From assembly GCA_000002435.2 (NCBI GenBank), contig CM018791.1: 64,000 nt of DNA; one strand, given 5' to 3'. Position 1 is the first letter of the stretch; each line of letters opens with the position of its first letter. Under the pieces are notes generated by a model. It had not been told where the DNA came from. It saw nothing but the letters and a program-made list of their open reading frames with translations, and ran no database searches. Both the position numbers and the translations under genes were made by a program. Shown one piece after another: positions 4,658 through 62,794 of the stretch. Source of the stretch: Giardia intestinalis. Its lineage: Eukaryota.

Positions 4658-4664
4658 ATTCACT
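4658..4664 (-). terminator. Giardia-type polyadenylation signal AGTGAAT for the arginine deiminase gene
   Basis: Matches AGTRAAY; 4 nt after the ADI stop (4668-4670). Lies between that stop and the next gene's ATG (4631). Confidence 0.7.
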
Positions 4665-4667
4665 GTT

Positions 4668-12000: not shown

Positions 12001-13470
12001 GACGCAGCCCTAATGCTTGTTGAAAGGGAGTCCGGGCTTCAGGATGCGACGGGCCGCTCGGCGCTCATGTGTGCCGCTGAACGGGATAATTACGAGGTTG
12101 CAGTCGAGCTTGCGCAACATGAGCAGGGCTTGAAAATGCCAGATGGTACAACTGCACTCATGATAGCAGCATCCAAGAACCATGTGCGGATCTGCAAGCT
12201 ACTTTCGGAGCAAGAGGGTCAGATGCGGAACACAGAGGGCAACACGGCTCTGCACATTGCTGCAAATCTTGATCACGCAGAAGCATGCGCAGTACTTGTG
12301 GAGCATGCAGGGCTCATTAAGGACAAGGCGGGCCATCTTGCCCTTCACAATGCGTGCATCAGAGGGAATAAGAACGCAGCCCGCGCTCTCTATCGCAAAG
12401 AGAATGGCTTCCATCAGTTTGATGGTTGGACTCCGTTGATGGGTGCAGCGGCCATTGATGACATGACAGAGCTTCGGTTCTATCTTGAGAACTACGTCGG
12501 AATGAAGGACAAGGATGGCATGACTGCGCTCATGTATGCTGCGGTTTGCAACAATCCCAATGCCATTCTGCAGCTCTTGGAGAGGGAATCAGGAATGCGC
12601 ACTAACAAGGGCTACACCGCGCTCATGCTTGCAGCTGAGAAAAATAACGTCAATGCGGTGCAGGTCCTCATGCCCAAGGAGGCTACAATTATGAACAACG
12701 AACGGGAAACGGCCCTGATGATCGCATCTCGGGCAGGTGCCACAGAGTCTGCACGCATCCTGGTGCCCACAGAGGGTGGCATCCGCATGCTGGATGGAAC
12801 GTCCGCACTTAGACTCGCGCTCGATTACAACAACCAAGAACTAGCCCGGTTCTTAGCAGAGCGAGAAGGGATTGCTGTGGGCCAACTCACGCGTGACTTC
12901 CACGGCCGAACAGATCTCATGCGCGCCGCAGAAGAGGGAGACGCCGTATCGGTTTACTGTCTGTTGCCAAGTCAGGGCGGACTTGTTGATGTCGACGGGA
13001 AGACGGCGCTCATGTACGCCTGCGAGCGTGGGCATGTTCAGTGTGCAAGGCTGCTCAAGGAGAAGGAAGCAAGGATGCGCCGGACGATGCGCGACTCATG
13101 GGAGGGTCAGACGGCGCTTATGTTTGCAGCGCAGGCAGGAAGTGTGGAGATCGTAGACCTGCTAATCGACGTTGAGGGAGGCTGCTCTTGCGCCAACGGA
13201 TGGACTGCTCTGATGAGCGCAGCCAGATTCAACAAGGTGGCATGTGTTGAGGCGCTCCTGGACCGCGAGGCGCGCATGCAGACAAATGAGCGGTTCGCTG
13301 CTGGGGCAGGATACACGGCCCTTATGGCTGCCGCAGAATGGTCGTTCATTAAGTGTGTGCGCGCACTGCTTCCTCGCGAGCATGATATCAGGCACTCCAG
13401 CGGAAAGACCGCGATAGACTTTGCGAAGACGAGCACCATCCTCGAGTGCATCAACAACTACCGTCCTTAG
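9097..13470 (+). CDS. Ankyrin-repeat plus coiled-coil protein ('protein 21.1'-like), 1457 aa. About 4 N-terminal ankyrin repeats, ~650-aa coiled coil, ~17 C-terminal ankyrin repeats. The true start may be the second ATG near 9154 (MNFSVSTKKEWF...).
   Basis: ORF in track. N-terminus is paralogous to the divergently transcribed gene at 6685..8967 (WF..I..R...GETGLM.A.R..D.E...IL.P.E). Alignment and an AT-rich tract (aaaagttacaaaaaagaagg) favour the second Met. Confidence 0.8.
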   Translation: MVQILSTPCKSYKKEGVRAMNFSVSTKKEWFASILAHRYETVRASMKKFSKSTDVDGETGLMLATRNSDMEMIRILMPVEAKLTNKDGLTALMIAAMLDNKDTCEVLAKVESDVILKDGQNALMIAAANGSLSATKMLLRHIQYVTDDLGWTALDHAANGGHLKCVQLLVAEVPSLTVSDFENAISVAYDKGHSHVVDYLASMIYQAEKDTYGDDSMTTGSPSGQTRSRSSSKSHKKNSLEQENKSLKQMNAKLNEEVERLRATDKRRLRETPNDAELEARIQELERENDMLRQTIQKRDTGNSSKHGDNLDAKYDDLWHQKEKLEQELEHTRRNLEEAKSAYNRVDDTEVTALRAELIEAREIQEQRTQTISTLNRQIDDMRRELDYLRGDNKATRGDAENMATSASQLAGELQDARHEIDRLNTTITELRQAGNRNPYDSNMAVLQQGHAQMQDIQAENRALKQELDYYRNMQANQPPYPGLAAQSSMTHSFRDYTSQEKVDLNGPHVIRSKQDPERERTLDLLRLENADLREVIRMRVNPVALDTDPESIDGKILRLDKLRVENDLLRHEILLKHSILTLNMEKDLQTIRAENVLLRDALRSRTSTYVPQDLIDQLTRQNDIIAAENIEYRRAIGQAASVHQPSYQDGYSPTLNPTLHGNGGSIPPAVIQEIESLRQENQTLKHQLATAQLAPSVETLHSTQLVQPNHPPLELQRELDRLTNENIDLRSTIHRLQSNQNQPLGNSVSDATEISMLRSENASLREAMRTQVHDTSTGLLHSLTTEIETLKQENIMLKNALHNQPPPPQPQSVITNVVPPETTYELERLRNENVTLKVELDKTRASLMTEINSRTMQSQASSQHLLTELDTYKAQIQRLERENELLRSLPPQNMGMMGTNGPMQIVIPGLTPNRENVKRDADGNTNLIRAVKNNNMDLVRRFWPVEAGVQNNRGESALMTAIEMNNTDAALMLVERESGLQDATGRSALMCAAERDNYEVAVELAQHEQGLKMPDGTTALMIAASKNHVRICKLLSEQEGQMRNTEGNTALHIAANLDHAEACAVLVEHAGLIKDKAGHLALHNACIRGNKNAARALYRKENGFHQFDGWTPLMGAAAIDDMTELRFYLENYVGMKDKDGMTALMYAAVCNNPNAILQLLERESGMRTNKGYTALMLAAEKNNVNAVQVLMPKEATIMNNERETALMIASRAGATESARILVPTEGGIRMLDGTSALRLALDYNNQELARFLAEREGIAVGQLTRDFHGRTDLMRAAEEGDAVSVYCLLPSQGGLVDVDGKTALMYACERGHVQCARLLKEKEARMRRTMRDSWEGQTALMFAAQAGSVEIVDLLIDVEGGCSCANGWTALMSAARFNKVACVEALLDREARMQTNERFAAGAGYTALMAAAEWSFIKCVRALLPREHDIRHSSGKTAIDFAKTSTILECINNYRP
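11857..13440 (+). repeat. Coding array of ~17 tandem ankyrin repeats (Giardia '21.1'-type: E.G....G.TALM.AA) in the C-terminal third of the 1457-aa protein
   Basis: Recurring ~33-aa units, e.g. GESALMTAIEMNNTDAALMLVERESGLQDATGRSALMCAAERDN... through ...GKTAIDFAKT. Confidence 0.75.
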
Positions 13471-13504
13471 GGCAGAGGAGATGTAAACACACCGCACCAA
13501 AGCA

Positions 13505-13511
13505 ATTTACT
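13505..13511 (-). terminator. Polyadenylation signal AGTAAAT for small TM gene A
   Basis: AGTRAAY match ~30 nt after the stop at 13543, in the 72-bp convergent spacer. A near-match TGTAAAC (13482-13488, plus strand) may serve the convergent gene. Confidence 0.55.
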
Positions 13512-13542
13512 AGAGACGATCAGAAGAATAAGTCTAAGGTGG

Positions 13543-13953
13543 TTAGCAAACTCCGCACATGGCCAGCGAGCCGATTATGATGACGCAGATAGCACACACT
13601 ACAAGTACAACAAAAGCGACGTGAGTGAACCAGGTTTCTACTGGCATACTGGAGGACCAATTCTCATACCAAGGCTGCGCCAGGCCCCACCAAAGCATCA
13701 TGGCACCGCGGAAAAGGTGGTGGGCGATAAAGCCAGACCAGGAGTTCTCGATGAAGGAGTCCCCAAAGCCCGTCCCGAAATCAGAGATGAGAGTGATGAC
13801 CATCCAGAAGAGGAGGGCAAGCTGGTAGACGTGATTCCCGACATGGTCGGTGCCCAGCAGCATCTTAGTGAGCATACCAATGCCGCCTGCAGCAGCCCCA
13901 ACGACCGTGAACCACTTCGCAGTCTCACCCGCGCAACCGGACGCCTTAGTCAT
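13543..13953 (-). CDS. Small ~4-TM membrane protein, 136 aa. Paralog A of a tandem pair. Weak TMEM14-like GG-x-G helix motif.
   Basis: ATG at 13951-13953. Hydrophobic segments with small-residue motifs (AAAGGIGM). ~25% identity to the next gene. AGTAAAT downstream of the stop. Confidence 0.65.
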   Translation of the reverse strand: MTKASGCAGETAKWFTVVGAAAGGIGMLTKMLLGTDHVGNHVYQLALLFWMVITLISDFGTGFGDSFIENSWSGFIAHHLFRGAMMLWWGLAQPWYENWSSSMPVETWFTHVAFVVLVVCAICVIIIGSLAMCGVC

Positions 13954-14068
13954 TTTAAATTCCTCGCAACAGTATTTTTTAAATTTGTCCGCAAGCCGAT
14001 TTTCGCATTGCAGTCGCCGATCTCAGGCAACAAGCACGTTATAGATCGAGCATGGAGAGTGGGCGGAG

Positions 14069-16039: not shown

Positions 16040-19000
16040 CTAGCTGTACCATCTGAATGTCTCTCTTTGATACCCTACAATTGCGCCATCTACCACAGCC
16101 AAAGAGTCGGCTAGTATCTCAGTCTCACAGACCTTCCTTATGTGTTCTGAAACGTCAGAATCGAGGGAGTATACGAGCTGCTTATTCACGAGCATGTACC
16201 CTGCAAAGCCATCGTCGTACCCCCCGAAGAAGGCAATGTGCTGTACAGGCGCTGGGACACTCAGTGCTTTTATGTGTATGTTTCCCAAGGTGTACAGGTA
16301 TATGTAATATTGGAGCGTCCTTTCCGAGTCCACTGTTGTGTCGTCATTTAGGACAGAGAGACCAACAGCAATGAGCCCTTGCCGCTCATGCACTGCGCAG
16401 TAAGTGATTGCTAGCTTTTCTTCATATGAGATTCTAAATTTGGCTAAGAGGTAGGGAGAGTCTGTTTCTCGTGAACCATAGGATACAGTCCGATGCAGTG
16501 AATTATATTCCAGGACATGAAGAACATGGGGCGAGTAGTAGCAAACCAGTGAGAGCTCGGGAACGTGGAGAAAACTTGACATGGCCAGTCGGCTGTAGTA
16601 TCCTACATCGAGGGGACAATGCTGAATGATAAATAATTGTGGCTGTGCATCAGTAGACAGGTTGCGGATATTGGCCAATATGATCCCCTGGTCGGTGTAT
16701 AAGTGGAGGACATACCCATAGAAGGGCATGTACCCTGCACTGTCGATCTTAGTTATAATGGCATTTTTGCTTGTAGAGCACCGTCTACCGAGTGTGCTGG
16801 CCAGCTTGAATGTAGTGATGTGCATTCCTATGGTCTTGCCTTGCTTAGCTAGCTGAGCCACGGGGATGTTTGTCAATAACCGTGGCTGCGAGCCAGAAGC
16901 ACGTGAGAATCCTAGAATAACGATCTGCCCTGGAGGTGGGTGTTGTGCTCCTGATAGCAATTGATCTGGAGTGTTGAGGCTTCCTGACTCTTGTTCACGC
17001 CCAAGGTTACCACCGGTGAAGACGGAGGAAAGCCCTCCGGACCCTCCTTTTGGAGCTACGTGGAAGGAGTCCAAGAATACCTTAGACAGCTCGAATACGC
17101 TGATCTCTTGGCGATTAATATCAAAGTAGAGCATGTAGGTATCTATGACAATGCAGTCTTTGGTGGTCCAAAGCAATCCATTTATGTGATTTGCCAGAGT
17201 AACGTGTCGTCCTGCAACACAGAGCGCTGGCTGGTTAAAGTGCCGAAATATTAGATCGCACTTTTCAGTTACACTTTGCACAGACCCTGGTGTCAACTGT
17301 TCAAAAGGAACCGTATGCAGATATCTTCTTATATCAACGCTGTGCGTTAGAACTAGCTCTTCGGCCATCTTTGTGGGCTTGTGCACGTTATCCATCAGCG
17401 CCAGCAACTTGGAAAGCTCGTCTTGATGCAATCGTATAGGATAGGTCCCAAAGTAAAGACTCGTAGCGATGCTTGCCTCACCTGGAGAATACTCCGCAGT
17501 GCCACTGGGAAAGAGATTCAGTGCATCCAGAGATTGCTGCTTAGATCCAAATAGTAACTCAATCCACGACCGGAGCCCTCCCTGGTCTGCTTGATTGGAG
17601 AAGATTGTAGATTCTAGAGCAGTTCTCTGAGCATGCACTGTGTCGATCGCCTGCGAGGGTGTGGATTGCAAGGCTTCCGTTACAGTTTCGGCGTCAGAGG
17701 AAAGCTGCAATCCGTTAGTATTTGTAAAAATATACGGAGTATAGAAGAGTTCCGGAATGGCCTCGTGGAATGAGCTGCCCAGCTCCACTTTCTCCCAGTG
17801 AGATCGCAGGCTAATGAAAAGTCGTGAGAAGGCATCCAAACACCCACCTTGGAGATTGCGTTGTAACGACGTAAAGGGCTCCACACAAAAACAATAATAA
17901 GGAAGAGTCATGTTGTTACTTATGAACGTTCTGAAGAGGGGGCTTGCCGAAAGTAACTTCATGGCGGAGGGAGACAGATTGGCTCTTTCAAGGCCTTTTC
18001 TAAAGAAAGAAATGGCGTCTTCACTGCTCGCTGTAGCAGCCTTCTCCAGTGTCTGCATGCTTTGCTTAAGGATGTCGTTAAGGAAAGCAGTTGCAGCCAT
18101 CTTGTCCTGAAGAGATGTGCTTTGCAGCTCACCAAGGGACATCTCTGCATACTTGGCGATGCTCTTACAGAGGGAGGTGTTGCTCTGTGCAGGCAGCGGA
18201 TACCTTAGATTTCGCGGCTTAGCAGATTTTCGTGGAGACAATGCTGGGAAAATGGGGTATATGTAAGATACAACAGGGGAACGCGCTGCGATCATGTTCA
18301 TTGCCGAGAGCAATGTGAATACAGAGAACTGGATCATTGTCAGAGAAATGGTATTGTTAGCCATCAAGAGAGAGATACGGCGACCCAAGATCAGCCGTAG
18401 CTGTCCAAGGAGCTCTGCCTGGAAAGTAGACACAATGGTCTCGAAGTCCAAGAGAACACCCTTCTTCTTATAAGGGGACTTGGAATAGTAGTAGCAGGTG
18501 CCATAAGCGCTTCCACTACCAGATTCTCCGCACCCGAACCGACGGTAATAACCGTAATTGTGAATCAGCTTAACTGCATGCTCTTGCGTTTTGAAGAGTA
18601 GGACATGCACAGCCCCATTAGATTCGATTATCTGCAAGGCAGGTTGCATTCGAATAAAGAAGAACGGAACCATGTATAGGATTCGCGAATACTCAATGGA
18701 CAGTTCAACCTCCTTATACTTATGGTAGGCCCTATTCTGAGTAGACATACAATAGTCGTAGAGCCCATACGATATCCGCCGGCCAAAGCTGTCCTGCTTC
18801 CTAGAAAAGCTATTTTCTAGATGGATGCTTCGAGGGTTATCCTTTGTGCACAAGAGACGCCTCAGAATAGAGAACGACTCTGCTTCTTGATGCTCCTTAA
18901 TAGCAGAGTTTGCGGGTTCATCTGCAGCTTGAAGTGCTCCAGTGGAGTCGTCTGCATCGCTCTCTGATCGCTGGTCAAATCGCGCCCAATTGAATAGAAA

Positions 19001-22000
19001 CGTCTGACTTTGGTGTCCAGTGTATGCTACAAAGTTGGGCTCAGTGTCCATTACTGAGAAGCACATCTTTTCCTGATATTTATCCGTAATCACAAGCTGC
19101 TCTCCCATTGGCGGGGCTTGCTTCTCAGCCTTGTCAATAAGGTCTGAGGATACACGGAGGCTGAGCACCCCGTATCCTGTATAGACCAGGGATACCACTA
19201 AGACGTCGCCAAACTCTATAAGACGACGGCTTGTGCTGGTATTTGTCACACTATACTGCCTTAAGCTCGTTGAACTGAGGGGTGGCAACGCACCGCCAAT
19301 ATCAGTCAGACAAGAATCTGCCAAGCGACCATTGACGTCAGACTGGATGAAGGTGGGACTTAGGCGCACAGAGGGATATGAAAATACAGATGGACTTAGT
19401 AACACCAACTTTTGGCTACTGAGATGATGCATTTGCTTATATATGGGGTGTGGCAGAAAGAAGTGAGCCACGATAGACTCCCTGGAGTATAGATACTTCT
19501 GATAGAATAGATGTAAAGCAGTGGATGAATCAGCCAGGTCTCCTCCCTTATGTCTACCTTCGGTCTTTGTTTGCCCATCCAAAGAAAACGCTGTGTCAGC
19601 AGAAGCGTTCATCATTTCGAGATGAGCTAAGGTTGAAAAGATCCCGAAAGAGTCTACAGACGCGACAATAGTCTTGGGAGATCTATATTTTGGTGTGTAG
19701 CTGCAGATAATGCATACGTTTCCACAGATTGCCCGTATCATTTCGAGTGAAAGCCCTTGGAGAGCTATGGAAGACAGACAGCCTGGGCAGACGTAACGCT
19801 CAGCCGAATCTCCATCTGCCCTTGCATTCTGCATACTAGGCATGTTGATAAACGGGTTTCCAATGGGGCAAAAGCGCAGTTCATCAGGTAGATATGGAGT
19901 CCATCGAGCGGAGTTCCCATCCGTAGAGAAGGGAAGCACGTCGATAGATGCACTTGTGCGAAGAACGTCAAGCTTTTTGTGGAGTTGCTCTGCAGCTGCC
20001 TTTGAGTAGGTATTCAAGCAGGTGCACACTAAGGAAAGCGGAGCAGATTGCCACACAGTAGCGAGGCCGTTGACTGATGATAGTCTGGTAGCTAGCTCTT
20101 GAAGAAATTCTGCCGGGTCATCATCACTCTTTGCAAATACACACACAGAACGAAGTATGGATATTGTTGTAGCTATGTAAGAATGCGTGGTCGTGAAGTG
20201 ATCCAAAAGTGCGGCCATCATATCGAGTATCTTTCGAAGCAACGAGACACTGCCATCCAACGCGCTGTAGTTTCTACTGGCCTCATCCAAGCCCAGAAGG
20301 GATAGCACATCTGCACCGACCTGGGAAAATAGCGCCAATGCAGCTAGAGAAACGAGTCCTGTTGTCATGTGAATGTATTCTGTATATAATAATTCATCGG
20401 AGAGCCCGAGAACATGTCTCAACGAAGCTAGAGAACTAGGGCAAGACACTGACTCATCTGCAACAAGTGGTAGCACTGCATAAGTCACTAGCATTTTCTC
20501 AAAACGATCATACTGCCCCTTGACAAGCAAATTGAAAAGAAGAAATGCGAAGAAGTCTGTGATGCCGTATAGTGTAGTAAATGTCTTAAGAATTGGTTCT
20601 TCTGACACTGAAAAATCTGTGCTTTCCAAAAGCTGCTCGATGCCAATAAGAAGCTCAGGAATTGCCTCCTTCCTTGGTGCCCAGTCTTTCCATATCAGTC
20701 TCGTTAGGGTAGAGGAGACAGCGACGTCGTCTATTGATAAAATAACGGGCAACAGAAGCATCTTTTCGTAAAAATAAAGATCTGCCACAACAGGGACAGC
20801 TTTGATAATAGAATACGCCTCCTCCCTTACAGCGTTTGTGTACAGGTCATAAATTAGTGCAATCAAGTCCTTATTTGAGAACGATGTCGTGACTGGAAAG
20901 GGCAGAGACATGCATTTAAGAAGCTGCACTAACATAATTGTGTGCGTATCATTGTCCTGTGAATACCTCCGCAAAAGAGCTACAAACTGCTCCATTGGCC
21001 TGCCGTACGAGGTGGCGCCAATACAGTTGGCAATCTCATCTGATACACGACAGAAAAGAAGTAATTGATACATGATAAAGCAGACGGGTGCTGTTCTTTC
21101 GCCAACACCGCGAAGGAGATAGTACCCCTCCGAGAAAACCATGTGGTGTAACTGGCAAAGTTTCACGTAGAAGGACTGCTCTGCTACCGTCCATTGCCAG
21201 CTCTGCAATTCAGTCACTTCTTTAGATGGACTTGCATCAGGAAAGTAGAGCGCAACTGGAACAATGATAAGCTCGTGATAAAGTTTCGTCAACAAAAGAA
21301 GTAGGTGTGGATGTGACTCACGCTGAGAGCTGATAATGAATTCAAACAGAAGCCTTGTAAATACAACAACCACATGAAGAGCTTGCATCCGTAGGGGCCA
21401 GTGCAGTATGGAGAAGTAGGCGATGAGAAGCTTATACCCACAGGCACGACTAAATATCTCTTCTACCTCTGCGTCCTGCAACATATGAAGAAGCTTCAGA
21501 AGAAGAGCCGGTTCGAACTCTTGCTTGTAGCGAGGCGTCTTCCCACTGCACCCATTCTCTCCAAGGAAGAGAAGGGAGAGTATCTGGAACAACCCACTTA
21601 TGTCGTAATTCCAGACATCCTGTGGCATGATGGCTCTGACTAGCTCACCATCTGCGGTATCATCATACATTATAAACGAATAGCCAATGGTCTCTGCGTA
21701 AGCCCATGTAAATGTTGGTGCTTGAAAACGTTGGAAGTGTTGTCGGTCGTTTTGTTGCTGAGTGTAAATGGCAACAGGGTAGATCCTTGTCGGATATGAG
21801 ACTGCAACACTATTGACGGCGCAAAAGGCGTCATCGCTAAGATATAGAAGCCTTATTGCCGCGTCTATGTCCAGGCGTGCTTCTAGCAGTGAGCTTGAAG
21901 TATCAATGTCCAGAGGGATAGATGTGATAAAAGAATCCCCTTTGCTGAGAATTGTGTAACACAATAAAACAAGGTTTTCAGGCGAAAACGTTGCCTCAAT

Positions 22001-25000
22001 GTATATCCACTCAGCTCTTTCATCCAATGGAACAATATACTTGCTAGACGACGTGCTTAGACTTGTAGAAAAGAAAACTGATCCATCCTGTATCCAAATG
22101 GTCAAGGTTATTGCCTCTGGTTGCGGCCTAGTTGTGTCACCTGCTCCCTTGTGAATAGTCAACGTAAGAGTCATCGTATAGCTATTTTTCACGTGGCAAT
22201 AAGTAAAGATTGTAGCATTTATCGAACTCAGCGAGACTGTTTTGCGTGCCCTTTTAAGTGGAGAGCTCCCCGAGCGCAATATTAAAAAGTTCCCTGGAAC
22301 AATTGCTTCTGCTTGTAAGGTTTGAGTCACCTGATCAGGACTCGGCTCCAACAATGGATGTACCTGAATTTGAAATAGCACATTAAAGTAGGAGAGAAAG
22401 CGCAGCATTCCGTCTTCATCAGCAGAAGCCTCTTGCCGCTCCGTTAGCAGATAGTAACAGGGGAGCTCGCTGCCCAATTGCTTCAGTAAATATCGAGCAA
22501 CGGCATTGTGGAGAATAAGGGAACTAGACTGCTTTAGCAGCAGAGAGAGCAGACGCACATCTAGAGGCGAATCCTCATCGGCAGCAGAGAAGAATGCGGG
22601 GAAGATATTGACTTTCGCAGTAAAGTCTGCAATGATGCGAAGTGTGTGTTGCTCCCCGCTGAGAATGCATGAACGTATAAACAGGTTGAGGGCCAGACGA
22701 GAAAAGTAAGCTTTACCACCTGTCGTAAGTTCATGCAAATATTCTAAGGACGCAGCTATGCACCGTAGTGAACGATGAGAAGAGGCTTTCCAAAGTGTTA
22801 GCGACGGGGTTGACAAGAACAGGAGACGAATAGAAATATCGTCATGGCCTGCTGCAGGATCGTGGAGCACCAAGTCATACAAAGCAGATTGAAATACTGT
22901 GAAGTCACGAGACACAAGCTTACTCCATTTTCCTGCCTGATAACTGTGTGAAGAGTCTCTAATAGACTGGAGTCTGCCCCGGAGCGAACGCTTATTGCCA
23001 CCAACAGACAGAAAGGACGGAATGCCTTGAAACAAAGAGCCAGAGATGATATAGCAGGACATAGATGAAGCACATAGAAAGATAAGGCACTGGTGAATGA
23101 GGTCAAGCCGGGCACTCTTGTCGCTAAGTACAAGCGTCATGATCTTCCTTAGTAGCGTTCTTAGATCAAAGTCATACCCTCGAACGTACTGCTCAGGTTG
23201 AGCTTCGTGGATTGTCTCCTCTAATAATGCAGACAAGTTGAGCATTTCCCCAATAAGAATAAACATGAGTATAAGCACATTCTGGGGTGATATTGACAAC
23301 TTCTCAAATTCAACCAAGACATAGTCGAAAAGATGAATCAACTCAACCGAGGTAGATGCCTTCCAAAAGGTAACTAGTTGATGCTCCTTCTTATTAAAAT
23401 GGCCGAGTGTAATGTGTTGGAAGAGCATGCAAAGTAGAACGATTTCCAGACATGGCCCCCCATACGCGATAACCTCACGAACGACACGAGAGTAAACGTC
23501 AAGAAAGACATTACCGGAGGGAGGTTCGCTGATGCACAATGTTGAGACATAGGCGAATTCTAAGAAGGTAATCAGATTATCGCACAGGAGTTTGAACATT
23601 TGCTGCTGAAGCATGGATGAGTAGCCTTTATATACCCATGAGACAGACAGAAAACTGTCAAGAAATTTAGCTGTTGTCAGTGAGGCTGTCTCATTCGGCG
23701 CAGTAAAGCACTCGTTATATATAGTCTTGCAAGTAGTGTGCAGCGAGCTCCCTGGCGTTGAGGGGTCGATCAATTCTCTAGTGATAGATCTATACACGGT
23801 CGGGGACACTTCTAGAAGTCCAAGGAGTGCCTCTTGAAAGATGGGAACATCCTCTGGAGAAAGTGTAGTATGCAGAGATTGTAAAAACGGGACGCATTCT
23901 TTATAAATAAAGGGTAGCGCTACGTAAGTAATCATAGTAATGCAATGGGCCTCAGCTTGGTCAAGCCACGTGGATCCCGTAGGGGCTCCGATAGCAAGAC
24001 ACACTCTGTAGAGAATCAACATAAGATGGAGGAGAAACGCAGCATCAACGTTTGCCGCCATATGCCGCTTAATGTTGGTCTTAATTAAACCTAGAAATAG
24101 ATTGAAAACGGCATCCATCCGCACCGGCGCCAACTGAAAGATTTTAATAAGAGTACATACAAGAAAATCTGAGTCTAGAGTATCTAGTGAAACCGTTATG
24201 CTGAAGTACTTAGTTAGTATGCTAAGCAGGACATTCTCTAGCTTATCACTAAGTAAGCGACTAGTCAGATCACTTTTCACAACGAGCTTTCCTCCTTTGG
24301 AAGAAGAGGCTTGATGGGCAATCAGATTGCACCGAAGGCTAGCAAGGCGCTGGATACAATCCACATAGAACGCGAGAGCAAGAGATATTTCATGAAGTCC
24401 CGTACCATCCTTGGAAAGCAACACATCAAGCTTTTCTAACGCATATAAAAAGCCTGTAGACCGATACATGGTACGTAGAGACCCAGAGGTTCTGCTTATG
24501 TGTACGGGCGAAACCCTTGAGAAAACAATCTCTCTTAAGCACGATAAGGAGCTCTTTAATGCCCATATAAATGTTTCATATTCTTCTACACAGTTCAGCA
24601 TTGTAAAGATAGCGTCAATAGCTGTGCTCTGAAGTGTGAGGAGGTCGACAGGCTGCAGATATGCGGTGCATACGTGTGGCCTGCTGGCAGATGTCTTGCA
24701 AATGTGAGATATAACACGTAACCTTCTAGAAAATAGAAACTTTGGTGAGATCTGAGTTTTCTCTCTCATTTGTGTGATGAGAGCATAGTGATGCACATCT
24801 TCTAATAGTGAAGCGAGCGAAAACAAAAATCTAAGACCTTCCTTGCTGTAAAGCGCTAGGTCGATAAGGCCAATTTGGTCCGTGGTATCCATAACAAGCT
24901 TCCCGTCGCTAGGTAAAAGTACATCCACATTCTGACCGGAGACTGCGACTCGCAGACTTTTTCTCAAGATGCCAAAGCATACTGTTGCTAGGTGGCTATT

Positions 25001-25483
25001 GGGATTGAGCCTGATGAAGAAAAGCAAAGCAATCATGCGGTTCAAAAGGGTCAAGAGCATGTGGCGAGGCCCAGCATCCTGATACAAGAAAGCAGTAAAT
25101 AAGGATGAAGACTCAGGTTGGAGCGCTTCGTCACACTGGTAAATATTATAGAGGGTAGCTGTAAGCATGTAGACAAGCGGTAGACGAAGGGCTGAGAGAT
25201 TTTGTTTTGCTGGATACACCTGGCTTTCACTGAGTGTACAATCAAGGAGCGCCCTTAGCGGCGTTTGACCTAGGAACTGGCGCGCATCGTGAACGTACGC
25301 ATTGTCTAATAGGAGTGAAGTCTTCAAAAGGGTTTTGTGCACCTCCTGAGAAGAGCTCAATATAGTGGTCAGAATCAGGGGCTTCAGTTGTTGACTATTG
25401 CTGGACTTGTCTATGTCCTCTGTCTCTAAGCCCTTCAACAGCTCACTGTGGAATCTAAGAACAGCGGCAACAAGACAGTCCAT
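16040..25483 (-). CDS. Giant hypothetical protein, 3147 aa. N-terminal ~2500 aa is leucine-rich and alpha-helical; the C-terminal ~450 aa is beta-rich (possible propeller). No catalytic motif recognised.
   Basis: Single uninterrupted 9.4-kb ORF with an ATG start (CAT at 25481-25483). Its start lies just downstream of the ACS polyadenylation motif. Confidence 0.75.
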   Translation of the reverse strand: MDCLVAAVLRFHSELLKGLETEDIDKSSNSQQLKPLILTTILSSSQEVHKTLLKTSLLLDNAYVHDARQFLGQTPLRALLDCTLSESQVYPAKQNLSALRLPLVYMLTATLYNIYQCDEALQPESSSLFTAFLYQDAGPRHMLLTLLNRMIALLFFIRLNPNSHLATVCFGILRKSLRVAVSGQNVDVLLPSDGKLVMDTTDQIGLIDLALYSKEGLRFLFSLASLLEDVHHYALITQMREKTQISPKFLFSRRLRVISHICKTSASRPHVCTAYLQPVDLLTLQSTAIDAIFTMLNCVEEYETFIWALKSSLSCLREIVFSRVSPVHISRTSGSLRTMYRSTGFLYALEKLDVLLSKDGTGLHEISLALAFYVDCIQRLASLRCNLIAHQASSSKGGKLVVKSDLTSRLLSDKLENVLLSILTKYFSITVSLDTLDSDFLVCTLIKIFQLAPVRMDAVFNLFLGLIKTNIKRHMAANVDAAFLLHLMLILYRVCLAIGAPTGSTWLDQAEAHCITMITYVALPFIYKECVPFLQSLHTTLSPEDVPIFQEALLGLLEVSPTVYRSITRELIDPSTPGSSLHTTCKTIYNECFTAPNETASLTTAKFLDSFLSVSWVYKGYSSMLQQQMFKLLCDNLITFLEFAYVSTLCISEPPSGNVFLDVYSRVVREVIAYGGPCLEIVLLCMLFQHITLGHFNKKEHQLVTFWKASTSVELIHLFDYVLVEFEKLSISPQNVLILMFILIGEMLNLSALLEETIHEAQPEQYVRGYDFDLRTLLRKIMTLVLSDKSARLDLIHQCLIFLCASSMSCYIISGSLFQGIPSFLSVGGNKRSLRGRLQSIRDSSHSYQAGKWSKLVSRDFTVFQSALYDLVLHDPAAGHDDISIRLLFLSTPSLTLWKASSHRSLRCIAASLEYLHELTTGGKAYFSRLALNLFIRSCILSGEQHTLRIIADFTAKVNIFPAFFSAADEDSPLDVRLLSLLLKQSSSLILHNAVARYLLKQLGSELPCYYLLTERQEASADEDGMLRFLSYFNVLFQIQVHPLLEPSPDQVTQTLQAEAIVPGNFLILRSGSSPLKRARKTVSLSSINATIFTYCHVKNSYTMTLTLTIHKGAGDTTRPQPEAITLTIWIQDGSVFFSTSLSTSSSKYIVPLDERAEWIYIEATFSPENLVLLCYTILSKGDSFITSIPLDIDTSSSLLEARLDIDAAIRLLYLSDDAFCAVNSVAVSYPTRIYPVAIYTQQQNDRQHFQRFQAPTFTWAYAETIGYSFIMYDDTADGELVRAIMPQDVWNYDISGLFQILSLLFLGENGCSGKTPRYKQEFEPALLLKLLHMLQDAEVEEIFSRACGYKLLIAYFSILHWPLRMQALHVVVVFTRLLFEFIISSQRESHPHLLLLLTKLYHELIIVPVALYFPDASPSKEVTELQSWQWTVAEQSFYVKLCQLHHMVFSEGYYLLRGVGERTAPVCFIMYQLLLFCRVSDEIANCIGATSYGRPMEQFVALLRRYSQDNDTHTIMLVQLLKCMSLPFPVTTSFSNKDLIALIYDLYTNAVREEAYSIIKAVPVVADLYFYEKMLLLPVILSIDDVAVSSTLTRLIWKDWAPRKEAIPELLIGIEQLLESTDFSVSEEPILKTFTTLYGITDFFAFLLFNLLVKGQYDRFEKMLVTYAVLPLVADESVSCPSSLASLRHVLGLSDELLYTEYIHMTTGLVSLAALALFSQVGADVLSLLGLDEASRNYSALDGSVSLLRKILDMMAALLDHFTTTHSYIATTISILRSVCVFAKSDDDPAEFLQELATRLSSVNGLATVWQSAPLSLVCTCLNTYSKAAAEQLHKKLDVLRTSASIDVLPFSTDGNSARWTPYLPDELRFCPIGNPFINMPSMQNARADGDSAERYVCPGCLSSIALQGLSLEMIRAICGNVCIICSYTPKYRSPKTIVASVDSFGIFSTLAHLEMMNASADTAFSLDGQTKTEGRHKGGDLADSSTALHLFYQKYLYSRESIVAHFFLPHPIYKQMHHLSSQKLVLLSPSVFSYPSVRLSPTFIQSDVNGRLADSCLTDIGGALPPLSSTSLRQYSVTNTSTSRRLIEFGDVLVVSLVYTGYGVLSLRVSSDLIDKAEKQAPPMGEQLVITDKYQEKMCFSVMDTEPNFVAYTGHQSQTFLFNWARFDQRSESDADDSTGALQAADEPANSAIKEHQEAESFSILRRLLCTKDNPRSIHLENSFSRKQDSFGRRISYGLYDYCMSTQNRAYHKYKEVELSIEYSRILYMVPFFFIRMQPALQIIESNGAVHVLLFKTQEHAVKLIHNYGYYRRFGCGESGSGSAYGTCYYYSKSPYKKKGVLLDFETIVSTFQAELLGQLRLILGRRISLLMANNTISLTMIQFSVFTLLSAMNMIAARSPVVSYIYPIFPALSPRKSAKPRNLRYPLPAQSNTSLCKSIAKYAEMSLGELQSTSLQDKMAATAFLNDILKQSMQTLEKAATASSEDAISFFRKGLERANLSPSAMKLLSASPLFRTFISNNMTLPYYCFCVEPFTSLQRNLQGGCLDAFSRLFISLRSHWEKVELGSSFHEAIPELFYTPYIFTNTNGLQLSSDAETVTEALQSTPSQAIDTVHAQRTALESTIFSNQADQGGLRSWIELLFGSKQQSLDALNLFPSGTAEYSPGEASIATSLYFGTYPIRLHQDELSKLLALMDNVHKPTKMAEELVLTHSVDIRRYLHTVPFEQLTPGSVQSVTEKCDLIFRHFNQPALCVAGRHVTLANHINGLLWTTKDCIVIDTYMLYFDINRQEISVFELSKVFLDSFHVAPKGGSGGLSSVFTGGNLGREQESGSLNTPDQLLSGAQHPPPGQIVILGFSRASGSQPRLLTNIPVAQLAKQGKTIGMHITTFKLASTLGRRCSTSKNAIITKIDSAGYMPFYGYVLHLYTDQGIILANIRNLSTDAQPQLFIIQHCPLDVGYYSRLAMSSFLHVPELSLVCYYSPHVLHVLEYNSLHRTVSYGSRETDSPYLLAKFRISYEEKLAITYCAVHERQGLIAVGLSVLNDDTTVDSERTLQYYIYLYTLGNIHIKALSVPAPVQHIAFFGGYDDGFAGYMLVNKQLVYSLDSDVSEHIRKVCETEILADSLAVVDGAIVGYQRETFRWYS

Positions 25484-25559: not shown

Positions 25560-27749
25560 TTAGTGCGAGAGCGTGATCTTGACGTCAACAGCTGCAATGC
25601 CTGGGTTCTTCCCCTCCTTCTGCTCCTCGAAGACAAGAAGCGGGTTCATGTCCAGTTCTGTGATCTCAGAGAAGTCGTTGACCAGCTGGGCAAGCTTGAC
25701 CATCGTATCAAGAAGCCCCTTGATGTCGCTTCGAGGCTGGCCACGCACACCGTTGAGGATCTCGTAGATCTTCGTCTTCTTGAGTTGCGCCTCTGCGTCC
25801 TCTCTGTCATACTTGTAGGCCAAATCGAACGCGACGTCCTTGATGTAATTAGCATAGATGCCACCCTGGCCAACCATGATCATGGGGCCCCATGTGGGAT
25901 CGCGGTTGACACCAACAATCATCTCAGTTGTCTTTTGGTACTTGGAGAAGTCGACCATCTGCTGGATCTCGACGCCCTTAAGAACCGCACCCTTGGGTCC
26001 GTTCTTCGCGGCATTGGCCATGATCTCCTTGAACGCGGCTGTCGCCTCGGCCTCTGTCTTTATGTTGAGCTTCACACCGCCGCAGTCACTCTTGTGGATG
26101 ATCTGGGGAGAGACAATCTTCATAACGACAGGGAACGTGACCTCCTTGGCGAACGTCGCAGCCTCTGCCTCGTTGGTTGCCAGCTTCGTTTTGGGCGCAT
26201 TCACGCCATAGAGGGTGAAGATCTCAGACGTCTCGTGGGAGAGCAGGACCGTGCGGCCATCAGCGCGGGCGCCAGCGATGATCTTCTTGATGCGCTCGTT
26301 GTCCACCTTAAAGACTTCAACCTTCTTTTCAGCAAGGGTCTTACGATTCTTGATCTTCCTGTACTTGAGCACGGCCCCAGTCGCGTGGATTGCAGGCTCA
26401 GGGAACGGGAAGACAGGCATCTTGGCATTATTCAGAATCTTCGATGGCTCCTGCATCGTGAGACCGCCCATGAAGGCGCTGACGACCAGCCTGTCAGGAT
26501 ACTTGGCGTACATCCTTGTGCATAGCTCGGCAACCTCGCAAGGCTTGGTCTGCCCCTGAGGAGTGACGAGGATGACGGCGCCGGCGACGGTCTCTGGGGG
26601 CTCCTTGAAGCAGATCTCAAGCGCATCTTCGTAGCGTTTAGGCGGTGCGTCGCCAACAATGTCGACAGGGTTCTTCACAGAAGCTTCGCCGGGAAGGACC
26701 TTGGCAAGCGCCTCCTTTGTCTTGTCGGAAAGCGCTGCCATCCCAACGTGGTAAGTCTCGAAGGCATCAGTCGTGACGATTCCAGGGCCACCCGCATTTG
26801 TGACAATGACAAAGTTGTCACCCTTCGGAAGGCGGTGGGAGACGAAGAGACGGCCAAGGTCAAAAAGGTCAGACATGGTTGCCGCACGCAGGACGCCAGC
26901 CTTCTCGAAGGCAAGGTCGAATGCGATATCGTTCCCAGCCAGGGCCCCCGTGTGGGATGAGGCGGCAGCGGCACCGGCAGCCGATGTCCCGGACTTCAAG
27001 ATGATGACAGGCTTCTTGTGGACGCAGGTGGGGATCTGCTCAAGGAACTTCCTGCCATCGACGATGGACTCAAGGTAAAGGAGGATGATATCGGTGTTCG
27101 GGTCCTCCGCGACCTCCATGATGAGGTCGACTTCATCCACGTCAGCCTTGTTTCCAAGGCTGATGAAGTTGGAGAAGCCGATTCCATTGGTCAGAGCCCA
27201 ATCAAGGATGGAAGTGAGCATGGCACCGGACTGAGAGAGAAAAGCGATGCTGCCCTTGGACGGCTTGGCAGAAGCGAAGGTGCAGTTCAGGTTCGGGGTA
27301 ACAATACCGAGGCAATTAGGTCCGACGAGACGAATCCCAGCGTCCTTGCAAATCTTGGTGAGGTCTTGCTCCATCTGCACACCTTCGCCGCCAATCTCCT
27401 TGAAGCCAGCGGTGATGACGACGAGGCTCTTAACCTTCTTCTGAGCACACTCCTTTGCCGCAGCAAGGACGGCCTTTGAGGGGATAACGACAATGACGAC
27501 GTCGATGCTGTCAGGGACATCAAGCACGCTCTTATAAGTCTTGTACCCCAGGATCTCAGTGGCCGTCGGATTTATGGGATAGACCTTCCCAGTGTAGCCG
27601 GACTCCTTTATGTTTGTCACGACCGTGTTCCCGACTTTCCCGGCGTTGGGGGAGGCGCCGATGACCGCAACAGAAGCAGGGTTTGTCAAGAAGGAAAGCT
27701 TGCCCATTTTCTTATACTTTGTTGAATAATTTTGACGCATCAGAATCAA
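25560..27749 (-). CDS. ACS: Acetyl-CoA synthetase (ADP-forming; NDP-forming acyl-CoA synthetase with fused alpha/beta domains), 729 aa as listed. The second ATG at ~27707 (MGKLSFLTNPASVAVIGAS...) is the more likely start (715 aa).
   Basis: CoA-binding N-terminus (VAVIGASPNAGKVG), succinyl-CoA-synthetase-like alpha domain and ATP-grasp beta domain. High GC3. AGTAAAC 7-13 nt after the stop. The first 14 track residues (MILMRQNYSTKYKK) read like a translated AT-rich promoter. Confidence 0.9.
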   Translation of the reverse strand: MILMRQNYSTKYKKMGKLSFLTNPASVAVIGASPNAGKVGNTVVTNIKESGYTGKVYPINPTATEILGYKTYKSVLDVPDSIDVVIVVIPSKAVLAAAKECAQKKVKSLVVITAGFKEIGGEGVQMEQDLTKICKDAGIRLVGPNCLGIVTPNLNCTFASAKPSKGSIAFLSQSGAMLTSILDWALTNGIGFSNFISLGNKADVDEVDLIMEVAEDPNTDIILLYLESIVDGRKFLEQIPTCVHKKPVIILKSGTSAAGAAAASSHTGALAGNDIAFDLAFEKAGVLRAATMSDLFDLGRLFVSHRLPKGDNFVIVTNAGGPGIVTTDAFETYHVGMAALSDKTKEALAKVLPGEASVKNPVDIVGDAPPKRYEDALEICFKEPPETVAGAVILVTPQGQTKPCEVAELCTRMYAKYPDRLVVSAFMGGLTMQEPSKILNNAKMPVFPFPEPAIHATGAVLKYRKIKNRKTLAEKKVEVFKVDNERIKKIIAGARADGRTVLLSHETSEIFTLYGVNAPKTKLATNEAEAATFAKEVTFPVVMKIVSPQIIHKSDCGGVKLNIKTEAEATAAFKEIMANAAKNGPKGAVLKGVEIQQMVDFSKYQKTTEMIVGVNRDPTWGPMIMVGQGGIYANYIKDVAFDLAYKYDREDAEAQLKKTKIYEILNGVRGQPRSDIKGLLDTMVKLAQLVNDFSEITELDMNPLLVFEEQKEGKNPGIAAVDVKITLSH

Positions 27750-27822
27750 TTTCCTTTTTCGGAATCATGCACTGACGATGACGGGCCCGAAAAGCCTTAT
27801 TTACACATACACAGGAGATAAG

Positions 27823-29808
27823 TTAATAGCCTCCGAAGCTATAGCGGCCGCTTTGTGTTCCTGAGAAACCCTGCTGTGCAGGCCTCCCGGCGCTAATTGG
27901 CCTATATGCGGAGGATGGCGACTGGGAGCCGTGGGGACGATTGCTGAGCGTAGGCGTACGAGGCCCCGACTGACCAGAAAAGCTACCTCGATTTGTCATC
28001 GGGCTGGCGGCGGGGGCATATCTAGAAGGCCCCGAGACCGGTCGAGTCCCTACAGATCCTTGCTGCGTGGGCGTTCGAGACTGTACATAGTCAGAGCCCC
28101 TGGAAGACATGCTCCCACGAGGCTGGGCACTTCGGGACATTCCTGGAGAGGAGCCTGATGAGTAGCTTGAGCTCATGCGATTCGATTGAGACATCCTAGC
28201 TGATGTGTGTGCCTGTTGTTGTGCCTGGGACATCTGTGGGGTCTGCTGCTGTGAATACATATGCGGTTGGGTATGACCATACGCCTGCTGGGCCGTATGT
28301 GCCGCAGACTGCTCTCCTGCCTGTTGCGCAGCAGCAGCGGCAGCTTCTGCAGCCAACTCTTCCAGCTTCCGAGGCGGTGTCGGTGGCCGGAGCTTTGTCA
28401 AACTGCCAGACCTGACAGTAGGATCGCTAGACGTACGATTGTAGGCGCCCTGACCTGCTTGACCCATCTTCGTAAGGGCTACATTTGCAAGAAGGGGTGC
28501 TGCATTCTGCCTTCCCACTTTCTGATTTTCATAGTTAGACCCAAGTGCCTTTCCATAACTTGGATTGGCACTGCGCATGCCACCAATCCCTTGGCTCTTT
28601 TGTGTCGCCGACATCTGGGAAATGTGAACAGGTGGCATCCCCATTGTGCTTTGTGGCCTGCGTGCAGACGTTGGCCGGTCACTCTGCCGAGAGATATCGC
28701 TCCTTTCAGAGATGGACTCGTTGCGGACATCTTCGCCACGTGGAGCCACGAGGATGGCCTCAAACTCATCACGGGGCACATATATGGACGACGCATCATA
28801 GGCGCTCCGTGTCGCTGTGCCGACCTTGGCAAGAATACTAACAGGCTTTGCAACAACAGCATAGCCCTCGAGGGAACTTGTAACCGGCGCTAGGTACCCG
28901 TCTGATCGGCGTTTGTGCAGAGGGAGATCCAGGTCAAAACTAATCGCAGGAAGCAGCGATGGATCCATCCGCACGGGAATACATCTCACCTGTTGCCCCG
29001 AGCGATAGGAGGGGGTCCGGGGTCTGAAAATCAATGACGATTGTGAGCCTACTGGACGCCCATTGGCATCAAAGTTAGCATATGTGGATGGTATCTGAGC
29101 CGTCACTAGGCCGTCCCGCCAGGTTATGTGCTTCTCTGGAGCCGGAGGGACTTCTACATGAATCTGGCAGTCAGAGAGGATAGCATGGATTCCCTTCTGC
29201 CTCACTAACTCTTCTGGATTGGGTTGTGCCATGACTGCGTTGAGAAAAGTATTCCGATGCAAGATTTCCTGGTGGTTAAGCTTAAGTCCTCTGGTGCTTC
29301 CAAAAATATCCTTGAACTCTCCGTATTTTGTGCGCCGGCGATTTGCAAATTCGTGAAGCTGACGTACATAATTCTGATGAGGCTTGGAGCTGAACCTTTT
29401 TGTAGTGATGAACTGAAGGGCTCTGTGAGGCGGCCAATGGAACCTGTGTACTAAGTATCCCGCCAATAAAACAACAGACCGCGAATCACCGTTGACAGAG
29501 TGGATCAAAACACACTCGTCTTTTTCGACCGCCTCGTTGACAAAACGAACGACCTGCGTAATCGTCTCATCCCTAGAATCAAACATGGTGCTATTCCCGT
29601 CCTCGTCAAATTGATATGAAAGATATCTAATCCCCACACCCTGAAAGCAATTTGTAAAGGTGTGGCTACAGCAATTAATCACTCGCGTCACTGAATTAGT
29701 AAATACAAAGTCTCGGTCCTCCGCTGCATAGCATCCACCCACAAATATGTTATCTAAAACACGGTTGGCCATGAATAGGGGCACATCGAGCATCTCACTT
29801 GAGGCCAT
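27823..29808 (-). CDS. Dual-specificity-phosphatase-fold pseudophosphatase (catalytic Cys replaced by Ser) with a ~450-aa Q/S/P-rich low-complexity C-terminus, 661 aa
   Basis: N-terminal DUSP domain: DNIFVGGCYAAED...VTRVINC...CVLIHSVNGDSRSVVLLAGYLVHRF. This matches VHCxxGxSRS except C->S. The codon is TCT, read as AGA on the plus strand in ...gagtggatcaaaac... near 29500. Candidate general-acid Asp (FDEDG) and the P-loop Arg are retained. Confidence 0.75.
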   Translation of the reverse strand: MASSEMLDVPLFMANRVLDNIFVGGCYAAEDRDFVFTNSVTRVINCCSHTFTNCFQGVGIRYLSYQFDEDGNSTMFDSRDETITQVVRFVNEAVEKDECVLIHSVNGDSRSVVLLAGYLVHRFHWPPHRALQFITTKRFSSKPHQNYVRQLHEFANRRRTKYGEFKDIFGSTRGLKLNHQEILHRNTFLNAVMAQPNPEELVRQKGIHAILSDCQIHVEVPPAPEKHITWRDGLVTAQIPSTYANFDANGRPVGSQSSLIFRPRTPSYRSGQQVRCIPVRMDPSLLPAISFDLDLPLHKRRSDGYLAPVTSSLEGYAVVAKPVSILAKVGTATRSAYDASSIYVPRDEFEAILVAPRGEDVRNESISERSDISRQSDRPTSARRPQSTMGMPPVHISQMSATQKSQGIGGMRSANPSYGKALGSNYENQKVGRQNAAPLLANVALTKMGQAGQGAYNRTSSDPTVRSGSLTKLRPPTPPRKLEELAAEAAAAAAQQAGEQSAAHTAQQAYGHTQPHMYSQQQTPQMSQAQQQAHTSARMSQSNRMSSSYSSGSSPGMSRSAQPRGSMSSRGSDYVQSRTPTQQGSVGTRPVSGPSRYAPAASPMTNRGSFSGQSGPRTPTLSNRPHGSQSPSSAYRPISAGRPAQQGFSGTQSGRYSFGGY

Positions 29809-29869
29809 AATTTCTTTAAACTTTGAATTTTTATCTCGCTAATGCCCACCACAACATGCACAGAGCCGG

Positions 29870-29894: not shown

Positions 29895-30500
29895 TTAGAA
29901 GAACTTCGACACCGTCTTTATTGTACTAAGTTCAAATCGAATGTCTGCAAGTTCCTTCTGGATCGCGAGGAGACACGAGGCGTCGCCACCAGCTTTTCTG
30001 TCATTAGAATCACATGCAAGAGACTCCATTGTACTTTTGGCCTCGTCCCTAAACGCCTCTAAGGTGTGTCGTGTGTCATCTATCTGTTCCTGAAGGTTTA
30101 AGATGTCATCGCTGTTCGCTTCCAGAACGTCCCGCACCTTTGCTAGGGTCTGTGTGAGCTGGCGAAACTGCCGCTGAGTCTCCAAGTGCCGTGTCTCCTG
30201 TGTTTCAATGAAACTGTTAATTCCCATCTCATCAAGAACCTCTCGTACTAGGTTCTTTATGAAGGTCTTGCTCACTCCTGTGGCCTCCATGCTTGCACTT
30301 TGCTCCAGCTCGTTGGCTGGGGTCGTTGCAGACGCCGTAAGGGCTTTGCTCTCTGTGTATCTCTCGCGAGCATTGAGATTTGAGCTGTGGGTGTGCGGCC
30401 GCCTGGCCGGTGACTGGGGTCGGTAAATGTAATCTCTATGAACTGCCGCCGCCTCCGAGAGATGCGGGTTCATGCATTTGACCGTCAAAAACTTGGACAT
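29895..30500 (-). CDS. Small coiled-coil protein, 201 aa, hypothetical. An alternative start at the second ATG (~30473) is possible.
   Basis: ORF with heptad-rich C-terminal half. AGTAAAT ~19 nt downstream of the stop (29870-29876). Its 5' end overlaps, or abuts by 4 nt, the divergent gene at 30472. Confidence 0.55.
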   Translation of the reverse strand: MSKFLTVKCMNPHLSEAAAVHRDYIYRPQSPARRPHTHSSNLNARERYTESKALTASATTPANELEQSASMEATGVSKTFIKNLVREVLDEMGINSFIETQETRHLETQRQFRQLTQTLAKVRDVLEANSDDILNLQEQIDDTRHTLEAFRDEAKSTMESLACDSNDRKAGGDASCLLAIQKELADIRFELSTIKTVSKFF

Positions 30501-30816
30501 TTTTATGCCGTATCGTCTGGATGTTTACGTGCCAGAGGAAGCTGTGGAGACTGTTAAAGAGGCTCTTTTTGCAGCGGGGGCAGGGAAAATAGGCAACTAT
30601 GACTGCTGTTGTTATACAACAAAAGGTGTTGGCCAGTTTAGGCCGCTTCCAGGCTCCAATCCAGCCAAGGGTAGCTTGGGTAACGTATGTGTCTGTGCCG
30701 AAGATAAGCTAGAGATGATCGTCGCTGACGGTTGTATAGACTCTGTGATAGAGGCCTTGCGAAAAGCTCACCCCTACGAGACACCGGCTTTCCAGTATTG
30801 GAAGGTCAACTCGTAG
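30472..30816 (+). CDS. Stand-alone PII/CutA-like domain protein, 114 aa (103 aa if it starts at the second ATG, ~30505). Resembles the inserted domain of YqfO-type NIF3 proteins.
   Basis: Motif string VYVPEEAVETVKEALFAAGAGKIGNYDCCCY..KGVGQFRPLPGSNPAKG...HPYETPAFQY. It resembles the GAGxIGNYxxCSF...GxGxFxPxxGANPxxG...HPYEEP signature I recall for the NIF3 insert domain, and the HPYExPE of CutA. AGTGAAC 17 nt after the stop. Confidence 0.5.
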   Translation: MHLTVKNLDIFMPYRLDVYVPEEAVETVKEALFAAGAGKIGNYDCCCYTTKGVGQFRPLPGSNPAKGSLGNVCVCAEDKLEMIVADGCIDSVIEALRKAHPYETPAFQYWKVNS

Positions 30817-62791: not shown

Positions 62792-62794
62792 CGC

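Follow-up and report, generated by a model that had tools for sequence, protein, structure and literature searches.

Can a gene recorded as a phosphatase still encode an enzyme when the nucleophile on which the chemistry depends is missing? The question is raised by a minus-strand open reading frame (ORF) of Giardia intestinalis, at 27823..29808 of the window examined here (the whole stretch of 64,000 nucleotides, from contig CM018791.1), whose translation is identical to the record 'phosphatase, putative' of G. intestinalis WB (assemblage A). The 661-residue product begins with a dual-specificity phosphatase (DUSP) domain in which the cysteine of the HCx5R signature is not present, the protein reading H-S104-x5-R110. 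An earlier, sequence-only reading had taken it for a probable pseudophosphatase rather than an enzyme, and our analysis agrees: the Cys-to-Ser substitution lies in the genome itself, is old and is maintained by selection, and by the established chemistry of protein tyrosine phosphatases (PTPs) and DUSPs the product is most likely not a cysteine-based phosphatase. By analogy with characterised relatives, a non-catalytic function is highly probable. The reading that we favour, with moderate confidence, is that of a DUSP-like protein, functional and strongly conserved though not catalytic, that docks protein phosphatase 1 (PP1) and acts as a targeting or regulatory subunit of it. The docking itself, read from motifs in a disordered segment, is the more tentative part, and we put its likelihood somewhat short of even.

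The assignment of the N-terminus to the DUSP fold is clear. Pfam DSPc (PF00782) matches residues 21-156 with 51.3 bits against a cut-off of 33.5 (E 1.4e-13), the domain begins near residue 11, and no other Pfam domain is found in the protein. Its top sequence matches in the PDB are DUSP22, Slingshot-2, DUSP9 and DUSP13, several of them engineered Cys-to-Ser crystallisation constructs, in which HSlaGvSRS aligns with the Giardia HSvnGdSRS. The P-loop HSVNGDSRS also stands in column-for-column register with the HC(S)xxGxSRS of DUSP22, and searches with the family profile described below place DUSP22 closest among solved relatives (94 bits for the wild-type Cys form, E 9e-26), together with DUSP15, DUSP10 and Slingshot-2; STYX reaches 68 bits. 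In fold the protein is of the PTP alpha/beta type, the P-loop lying at the bottom of the pocket, and it lacks the essential catalytic residue, the combination by which a pseudophosphatase is defined. The fold, the serine with its TCT codon, the retained P-loop arginine (Arg110) and the C-terminus ...GRYSFGGY are all as the sequence-only reading had described them.

Its claim that the general-acid aspartate is kept holds only loosely. In the DUSP22 alignment the acid column is occupied by Glu69, with Asp68 and Asp70 on either side. Across the wider family this column holds Asp in 112 of 144 members, Glu in 22, Gln in 4, Asn in 2 and Ala in 1. The residue is Asp in Kipferlia and Aduncisulcus, Glu in Carpediemonas and Giardia, Gln in Spironucleus and Hexamita, and Ala in a related environmental sequence. 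Such decay of the acid to Glu, Gln or Ala in the diplomonad lineage fits a non-catalytic domain.

Conservation and selection show that the serine is a fixed feature of the protein. Ser104, Gly107, Ser109 and Arg110 are invariant in 19 of 19 aligned orthologues, drawn from Giardia assemblages A, B and E, divergent Giardia-like lineages, Spironucleus salmonicida, two Hexamita inflata paralogues and Carpediemonas membranifera, and none of the 19 has a cysteine in place of the serine. The serine is encoded by TCT in WB, by TCA in Hexamita and in a divergent Giardia lineage, and by TCC in Carpediemonas; synonymous changes have accumulated at the third codon position without any change of amino acid. 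Nei-Gojobori estimates by codon region, comparing assemblages A and B, are equally clear. Within the DUSP core (codons 1-160) all 160 residues are identical at a synonymous divergence (dS) of 0.92. The ratio of nonsynonymous to synonymous divergence (dN/dS) is 0.002 over residues 161-345, 0.022 over the low-complexity tail (residues 346-661, 94% amino acid identity) and 0.012 over the whole gene, whose reading frame is intact. Purifying selection is extreme over the entire protein, which makes this gene among the most constrained that could be expected between assemblages. The absence of any amino acid change in 160 codons at a dS of about 0.9 implies an important role in a minimal signalling system.

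The protein is one of a family. We searched a profile of residues 1-345, built from ten fornicate sequences, against 1.84 billion representative proteins and recovered 9280 matches at E<=1e-3 and 119 representatives at E<=1e-30, many of the matches reaching well beyond the DSPc domain. Judged from these matches, the family comprises at least about 119 sequence clusters in which serine is the rule. In a column census of the best 150 matches together with the fornicate sequences, one generic DUSP excluded, the nucleophile column holds Ser in 141 of 148 sequences, Cys in 4, Asp in 2 and Gly in 1; His103 is conserved in 134 of 148, Gly107 in 143 of 149, Arg110 in 148 of 149 and Trp125 in 151 of 151. 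We defined membership by an HSxxGxSR[SAC] P-loop, a Y-L-x-[FY]-x-W-x-D loop, Trp125, an LRNT[FY]LN helix (within a C-terminal motif EE.LLRNT[FY]LN that, like the loop, is common to the family) and a basic-[LIV]-x-[WF]-x-D motif. The Giardia protein has all of these, except that F67 replaces the tryptophan of the loop and E69 its aspartate. The framing of this gene as a singular natural substrate trap therefore does not survive, both because of this family and because Cys-to-Ser DUSP pseudophosphatases are already established in STYXL1 and STYXL2.

Named members of the family are found in Metamonada (Kipferlia, Aduncisulcus), in Discoba (the jakobid Andalucia and the kinetoplastids Bodo, Cryptobia, Trypanosoma, Leishmania, Leptomonas and Phytomonas) and in Alveolata (the ciliates Pseudomicrothorax, Halteria and Euplotes, the dinoflagellate Polarella, Colpodella and the apicomplexan Rhytidocystis); among the matches there is no nameable member from animals, fungi or plants. 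The trypanosomatid orthologues are single proteins with Ser. All named ones read VLVHSxxGxSRS under labels such as 'dual specificity protein phosphatase, putative'. Throughout the family the annotation is that of an ordinary dual specificity phosphatase, and as a description of activity it is probably wrong. The exceptional residues at the nucleophile position are Cys in P0082 (Cryptobia borreli), P0062, P0075 and P0155, Asp in P0053 and P0113, and Gly in P0139. The nearest neighbours of these rare members are Ser-bearing, so that Ser and Cys have interchanged within the family, and the exceptions could be reversions or independent changes.

What follows the DUSP core is not the featureless tail that had been proposed. 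The sequence-only reading described about 450 residues of Q/S/P-rich, disordered sequence, and the compositional bias is real (0.55-0.72 Q/S/P/G/T/A) and confined to residues ~346-661; residues 161-345 are conserved and non-repetitive, with a modelled helix and linear motifs, and even the low-complexity part evolves at a dN/dS of 0.02. Within that part, R474, P475, T477, P478 and P479 of the motif RPPTPPR are invariant in the 19 orthologues. In an AlphaFold2 (AF2) model, residues 171-194 are placed with the DUSP core at a predicted local distance difference test score (pLDDT) of 86-89; an alignment of 10 sequences left the extension unmodelled, and one of 59 gave the helix and none of the later blocks. 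N186 and N190 in this helix are near-invariant among about 128 relatives. Solved DUSPs have no counterpart, their alignments ending at <=152 residues, and in the model the helix appears to be a family-specific addition to the DUSP domain. Further on, between residues 240 and 330 (28819-29091), three blocks occur in fornicates only (LFRPRTPSY, VRCIPVR.D..LP..SFDLDLP and KRRSDGY); none of the three is well modelled or matches a domain. We take the FDLDLP of the second block to be loosely like the FDxxLP element of the Ki-67/RepoMan PP1 motif.

Some 35 residues past the helix, Giardia reads E-K-H-I-T-W-R-D-G in a segment whose low pLDDT indicates that it is not packed and is presumably disordered. 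The family consensus here is [KR]x4-[L45 I36 V9]-x-[W58 F29]-x-D77-[TNG], as in RVSFVDN of Phytomonas, RITFVDT of Leishmania and RVRW of Kipferlia. The RVxF docking motif for PP1 is defined as [KR][KR][VI]x[FW], and the SILK motif as [GS]IL[RK] (PMC11728760). We counted RVxF-type patterns in the 70 residues following the helix of 100 non-redundant members and compared the counts with shuffled sequences. The pattern [RK]x0-1[VIL]{P}[FWY] occurs in 90 of the 100 against 14.4 +- 3.7 in shuffles, and with a trailing acidic residue in 83 against 1.7 +- 1.3. For [RK]x0-1[VI]{P}[FW], which the Giardia KHITW (226-230) fits, the count is 43 against 5.7 +- 2.4, and for [KR][KR][VIL]x[FW] it is 39 against 1.0 +- 1.0. 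In a control segment 100-170 residues downstream, the first of these patterns is present in 5 of 88 members. SILK is also enriched: 22 of the 100 members have it, compared with 1.9 +- 1.4 in shuffles, and it usually lies 30-45 residues beyond the RVxF-type motif. In fornicates the block PVSIL[KR] is invariant, and the canonical SIL[KR] is found in Spironucleus, Hexamita and others. The MyPhoNE motif occurs in 0 of the 100 members.

These observations suggest how the protein may work. The P-loop keeps its phosphate cradle (the histidine, the backbone glycine and the arginine) with serine in place of the thiolate nucleophile, and the domain, as expected from Cys-to-Ser DUSP mutants, would probably bind a phosphorylated ligand and leave it unhydrolysed. 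Helix 179-194 would complete the domain, after which a disordered chain would display conserved short linear motifs, KHITW(RD) as an RVxF-type dock for the PP1 catalytic subunit and PVSIL(A)K as the counterpart of SILK. The protein would then be a PP1-targeting or regulatory subunit, in which the dead DUSP domain and the phosphorylatable tail select the place or the substrate and docked PP1 supplies the catalysis.

The step from a serine to the loss of hydrolysis has firm precedent. Cys-to-Ser mutants of PTPs and DUSPs are the standard inactive forms. DUSP22 has been crystallised as C88S with p-nitrophenyl phosphate (pNPP) bound (PDB 4woh), showing that a Ser-type pocket is able to hold a phospho-ligand, and for STYX and MK-STYX to become active again the cysteine has to be put back (PMC8269279). 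We infer from these three points together that the Giardia domain would not hydrolyse phosphoesters.

Several points weigh against the proposal. Most non-diplomonad members keep the general-acid aspartate, which would be needless in a purely dead domain. The RVxF motif is degenerate; its stricter form, [KR][KR][VI]x[FW], is not matched by KHITW, and 45% of the family have leucine at the V/I position. The near-invariant aspartate two residues past the aromatic lies outside the RVxF definition, and another partner is possible. Giardia reads S-I-L-A-K, so that the canonical [GS]IL[RK] is not matched. In known PP1 partners SILK lies N-terminal to RVxF; here it lies C-terminal to the RVxF-type motif. 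The literature yielded no biochemical data on any family member and no link of PP1 or RVxF to a DUSP-like pseudophosphatase, and the DSP domain of STYXL2 is dispensable for its function (PMC11147509).

The departures from canonical RVxF and SILK, in residues and in order, would suit a non-catalytic scaffold in which the basic-[LIV]-x-[WF]-x-D element is the dock of some other partner, a nuclear-localisation-type patch, or an element that folds back on the pocket. We consider this explanation rather unlikely, because two types of PP1 docking motif, found together in one disordered segment, are each enriched in their own right in lineages far apart, and in the AF2 model the segment is not placed against the DUSP domain. 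Nor is the generic cyclin RxL pattern enriched (35 against 31.9 +- 4 in shuffles, among the 100 members), and we rejected on that count the idea that the conserved motif is a cyclin RxL.

Much less probable is an enzyme that has stayed active, with Ser104 or water serving as nucleophile or with a non-protein phospho-substrate. The pocket is certainly well kept, as the His, Gly and Arg columns and the 134 of 144 members with Asp or Glu at the acid position show, and the nesting of Cys-bearing among Ser-bearing members means that its geometry has evidently been maintained. Against this, many of the matched PDB structures are themselves inactive Cys-to-Ser constructs, in one of which, DUSP22 C88S, the pNPP is intact; the diplomonads have replaced the acid; and the activity of STYX and MK-STYX depends on restoring the cysteine. 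Finally, that TCT is a sequencing or assembly error, as the sequence-only reading had allowed, or that an active DUSP is decaying here into a pseudogene, has nothing in its favour beyond the single base between TCT and TGT and is refuted by the identical protein on record for 64 contigs, the Ser of all aligned orthologues and of 141 among the 148 relatives in which the column is occupied, the synonymous drift of the codon, the intact frame, the low dN/dS and the conserved synteny.

Pseudophosphatases are already a recognised class, and a Cys-to-Ser change alone is not new. What matters here, besides the strong constraint on the gene, is a coherent Ser-type DUSP-like family common to diplomonads, trypanosomatids, ciliates, dinoflagellates and apicomplexan relatives. 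We found no publication describing this protist family in the literature, though earlier phosphatome classifications may name it, and nothing specific on the accessions of this gene or on a Giardia pseudophosphatase or phosphatome. The family is apparently undescribed and widely distributed, and it has a domain extension of its own as well as candidate PP1-docking motifs. The RVxF- and SILK-type motifs frame a concrete hypothesis, a dead phosphatase that recruits PP1, for which Trypanosoma brucei, Leishmania and Giardia are genetically tractable parasites. It is tempting to speculate further, doubtful as we hold it, that an ancient Ser-type dead DUSP family, perhaps dating back to the last eukaryotic common ancestor, consists of substrate-selecting PP1 subunits whose fossil pocket reads phospho-targets while an adjacent segment of RVxF and SILK type docks PP1, by which the phosphate is then removed. 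If this were true, the family would have been overlooked because it has no nameable members from animals, fungi or plants.

The positions of all features of the gene and its flanks are collected in the table.

Table. Features of the Ser-type DUSP-like gene and its putative flanking signals (window coordinates).
Feature	Position	Strand	Remark
Complete coding sequence, including stop codon	27823..29808	-	661 amino acids; XP_001705743.1 / KAE8303297.1 / UniProt A8BPG1
DUSP-fold core, residues ~11-170	29299..29778	-	Pfam DSPc 21-156
Acid-loop residues D68-E69-D70	29599..29607	-	E69 in general-acid column (DUSP22 D57), from DUSP22 alignment
P-loop H103-S104-V-N-G107-D-S109-R110-S111	29476..29502	-	HSx2Gx2RS, not HCx2Gx2RS
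Ser104 codon TCT	29497..29499	-	nucleophile position
Family-specific C-terminal helix, residues 179-194	29227..29274	-	EILHRNTFLNA (family EE.LLRNT[FY]LN)
RVxF-type motif K226-H-I-T-W-R-D232	29113..29133	-	candidate docking site for PP1 catalytic subunit
Fornicate-conserved extension, residues 225-330	28819..29136	-	WRDG, LFRPRTPSY, VRCIPVR.D..LP..SFDLDLP, RRSDGY, PVSIL
SILK-like motif P322-V-S-I-L-A-K328	28825..28845	-	
Q/S/P/G/A-rich low-complexity tail, residues 346-661	27826..28773	-	four RPxS, eight S/T-P sites
RPPTPPR motif, residues 474-480	28369..28389	-	PxxPxR form, TP site, in low-complexity tail
AT-rich stretch gataaaaattcaaagtttaaagaaatt	29809..29835	-	directly upstream of ATG
TGTAAAT	27799..27805	-	17 nt past stop codon

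The AT-rich stretch before the ATG is a probable Giardia-type initiator or promoter, and TGTAAAT, one mismatch away from the Giardia consensus AGTRAAY, would fit a polyadenylation signal. The gene is flanked by one for an ADP-forming acetyl-CoA synthetase and by a small coiled-coil ORF, beyond which lies a methionine aminopeptidase-type gene. This order is kept in assemblage B, and the adjacency to the synthetase also in a more divergent Giardia lineage. The synthetase (25560..27749, minus strand) has CoA_binding, Succ_CoA_lig and ATP-grasp_5 domains; its program-made ORF begins at TTG, and the assemblage B gene call of 715 residues suggests that the true start is probably the ATG at MGKLSFL. 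A 201-residue ORF at 29895-30500 (minus strand), whose product has no Pfam match, overlaps by 29 nt at the 5' ends a divergent 114-residue ORF at 30472-30816 (plus strand); the assemblage B counterpart of the former has only 131 residues (L004 2519-2914), which makes a downstream ATG the probable true start. The 114-residue ORF is a stand-alone copy of the NIF3-family insert domain (PDB 2gx8 residues 164-259, E 2e-15), with no Pfam match at 1e-3, and is also a 114-residue gene call in assemblage B (L004 1993-2337). A 3147-residue ORF occupies 16040-25483 (minus strand), and its assemblage B counterpart (3161 residues, cut at the end of L004) has a BEACH domain. The G+C content rises locally to 0.55-0.59 at 62001-64000, 4001-6000 and 12001-14000 against a window background of ~0.47-0.50. 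One record names the assemblage B orthologue of the DUSP-like protein (ESU42642.1, in the cluster of P0014) 'Polynucleotide 3'-phosphatase / Polynucleotide 5'-hydroxy-kinase', a name that finds no support in its sequence and is probably a mis-annotation.

How does the Giardia protein compare with known systems? The TriTryp phosphatome lists one DSP with a substituted catalytic cysteine ('STYX') per kinetoplastid genome, with no analysis of function or motifs (PMC2175518), and these proteins may be members of the family described here. A survey of parasite phosphatomes counted DSPc domains and did not flag inactive ones. DUSP22 (JSP-1) and DUSP15 resemble the Giardia protein in having the catalytic domain at the extreme N-terminus, with a YLxIPxxD acid loop and a P-loop in register; they differ as active Cys enzymes of ~150-200 residues without the LRNTFLN helix, the RVxF-type motif or the tail. 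PP1 partners with both RVxF and SILK, such as inhibitor-2, also carry the two motif types in disordered segments (definitions in PMC11728760), whereas the family has them in reversed order and frequently has leucine at the V/I position, and its PP1 binding is putative; we found no known PP1 partner with a DUSP-like domain in the literature.

Natural Cys-to-Ser DUSP pseudophosphatases are established in MK-STYX/STYXL1 (PMC8269279) and STYXL2 (PMC11147509). STYX itself (PDB 2r0b) has Gly at the nucleophile position where Giardia has Ser, and membership of the STYX group was rejected on this residue and on the lower profile score relative to DUSP22. MK-STYX shares the natural Cys-to-Ser change in a DUSP P-loop, and becomes active on back-mutation, but has an N-terminal CH2/rhodanese domain and a His-to-Phe change in the P-loop (PMC8269279). 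The Giardia protein has no N-terminal domain, no CH2/rhodanese domain by Pfam, and retains His103, and was not assigned to this group. Without that domain, with no kinase-interaction motif and with the DSP domain starting at residue ~11, the mitogen-activated protein kinase-like target suggested by the sequence-only reading finds no footing. STYXL2 (formerly DUSP27) is the closest in architecture, sharing an N-terminal DSPc domain, a natural Cys-to-Ser change and a long C-terminal region, largely unstructured in STYXL2 (PMC11147509). The resemblance is of architecture only. STYXL2 acts in vertebrate muscle, where it binds non-muscle myosin II with a dispensable DSP domain, and is reported absent from invertebrates (PMC11147509), which makes common descent of the Ser state unlikely. 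The Giardia family, unlike STYXL2, has its own C-terminal helix and RVxF- and SILK-type motifs, and the tightest constraint in the protein falls on its DSP core.

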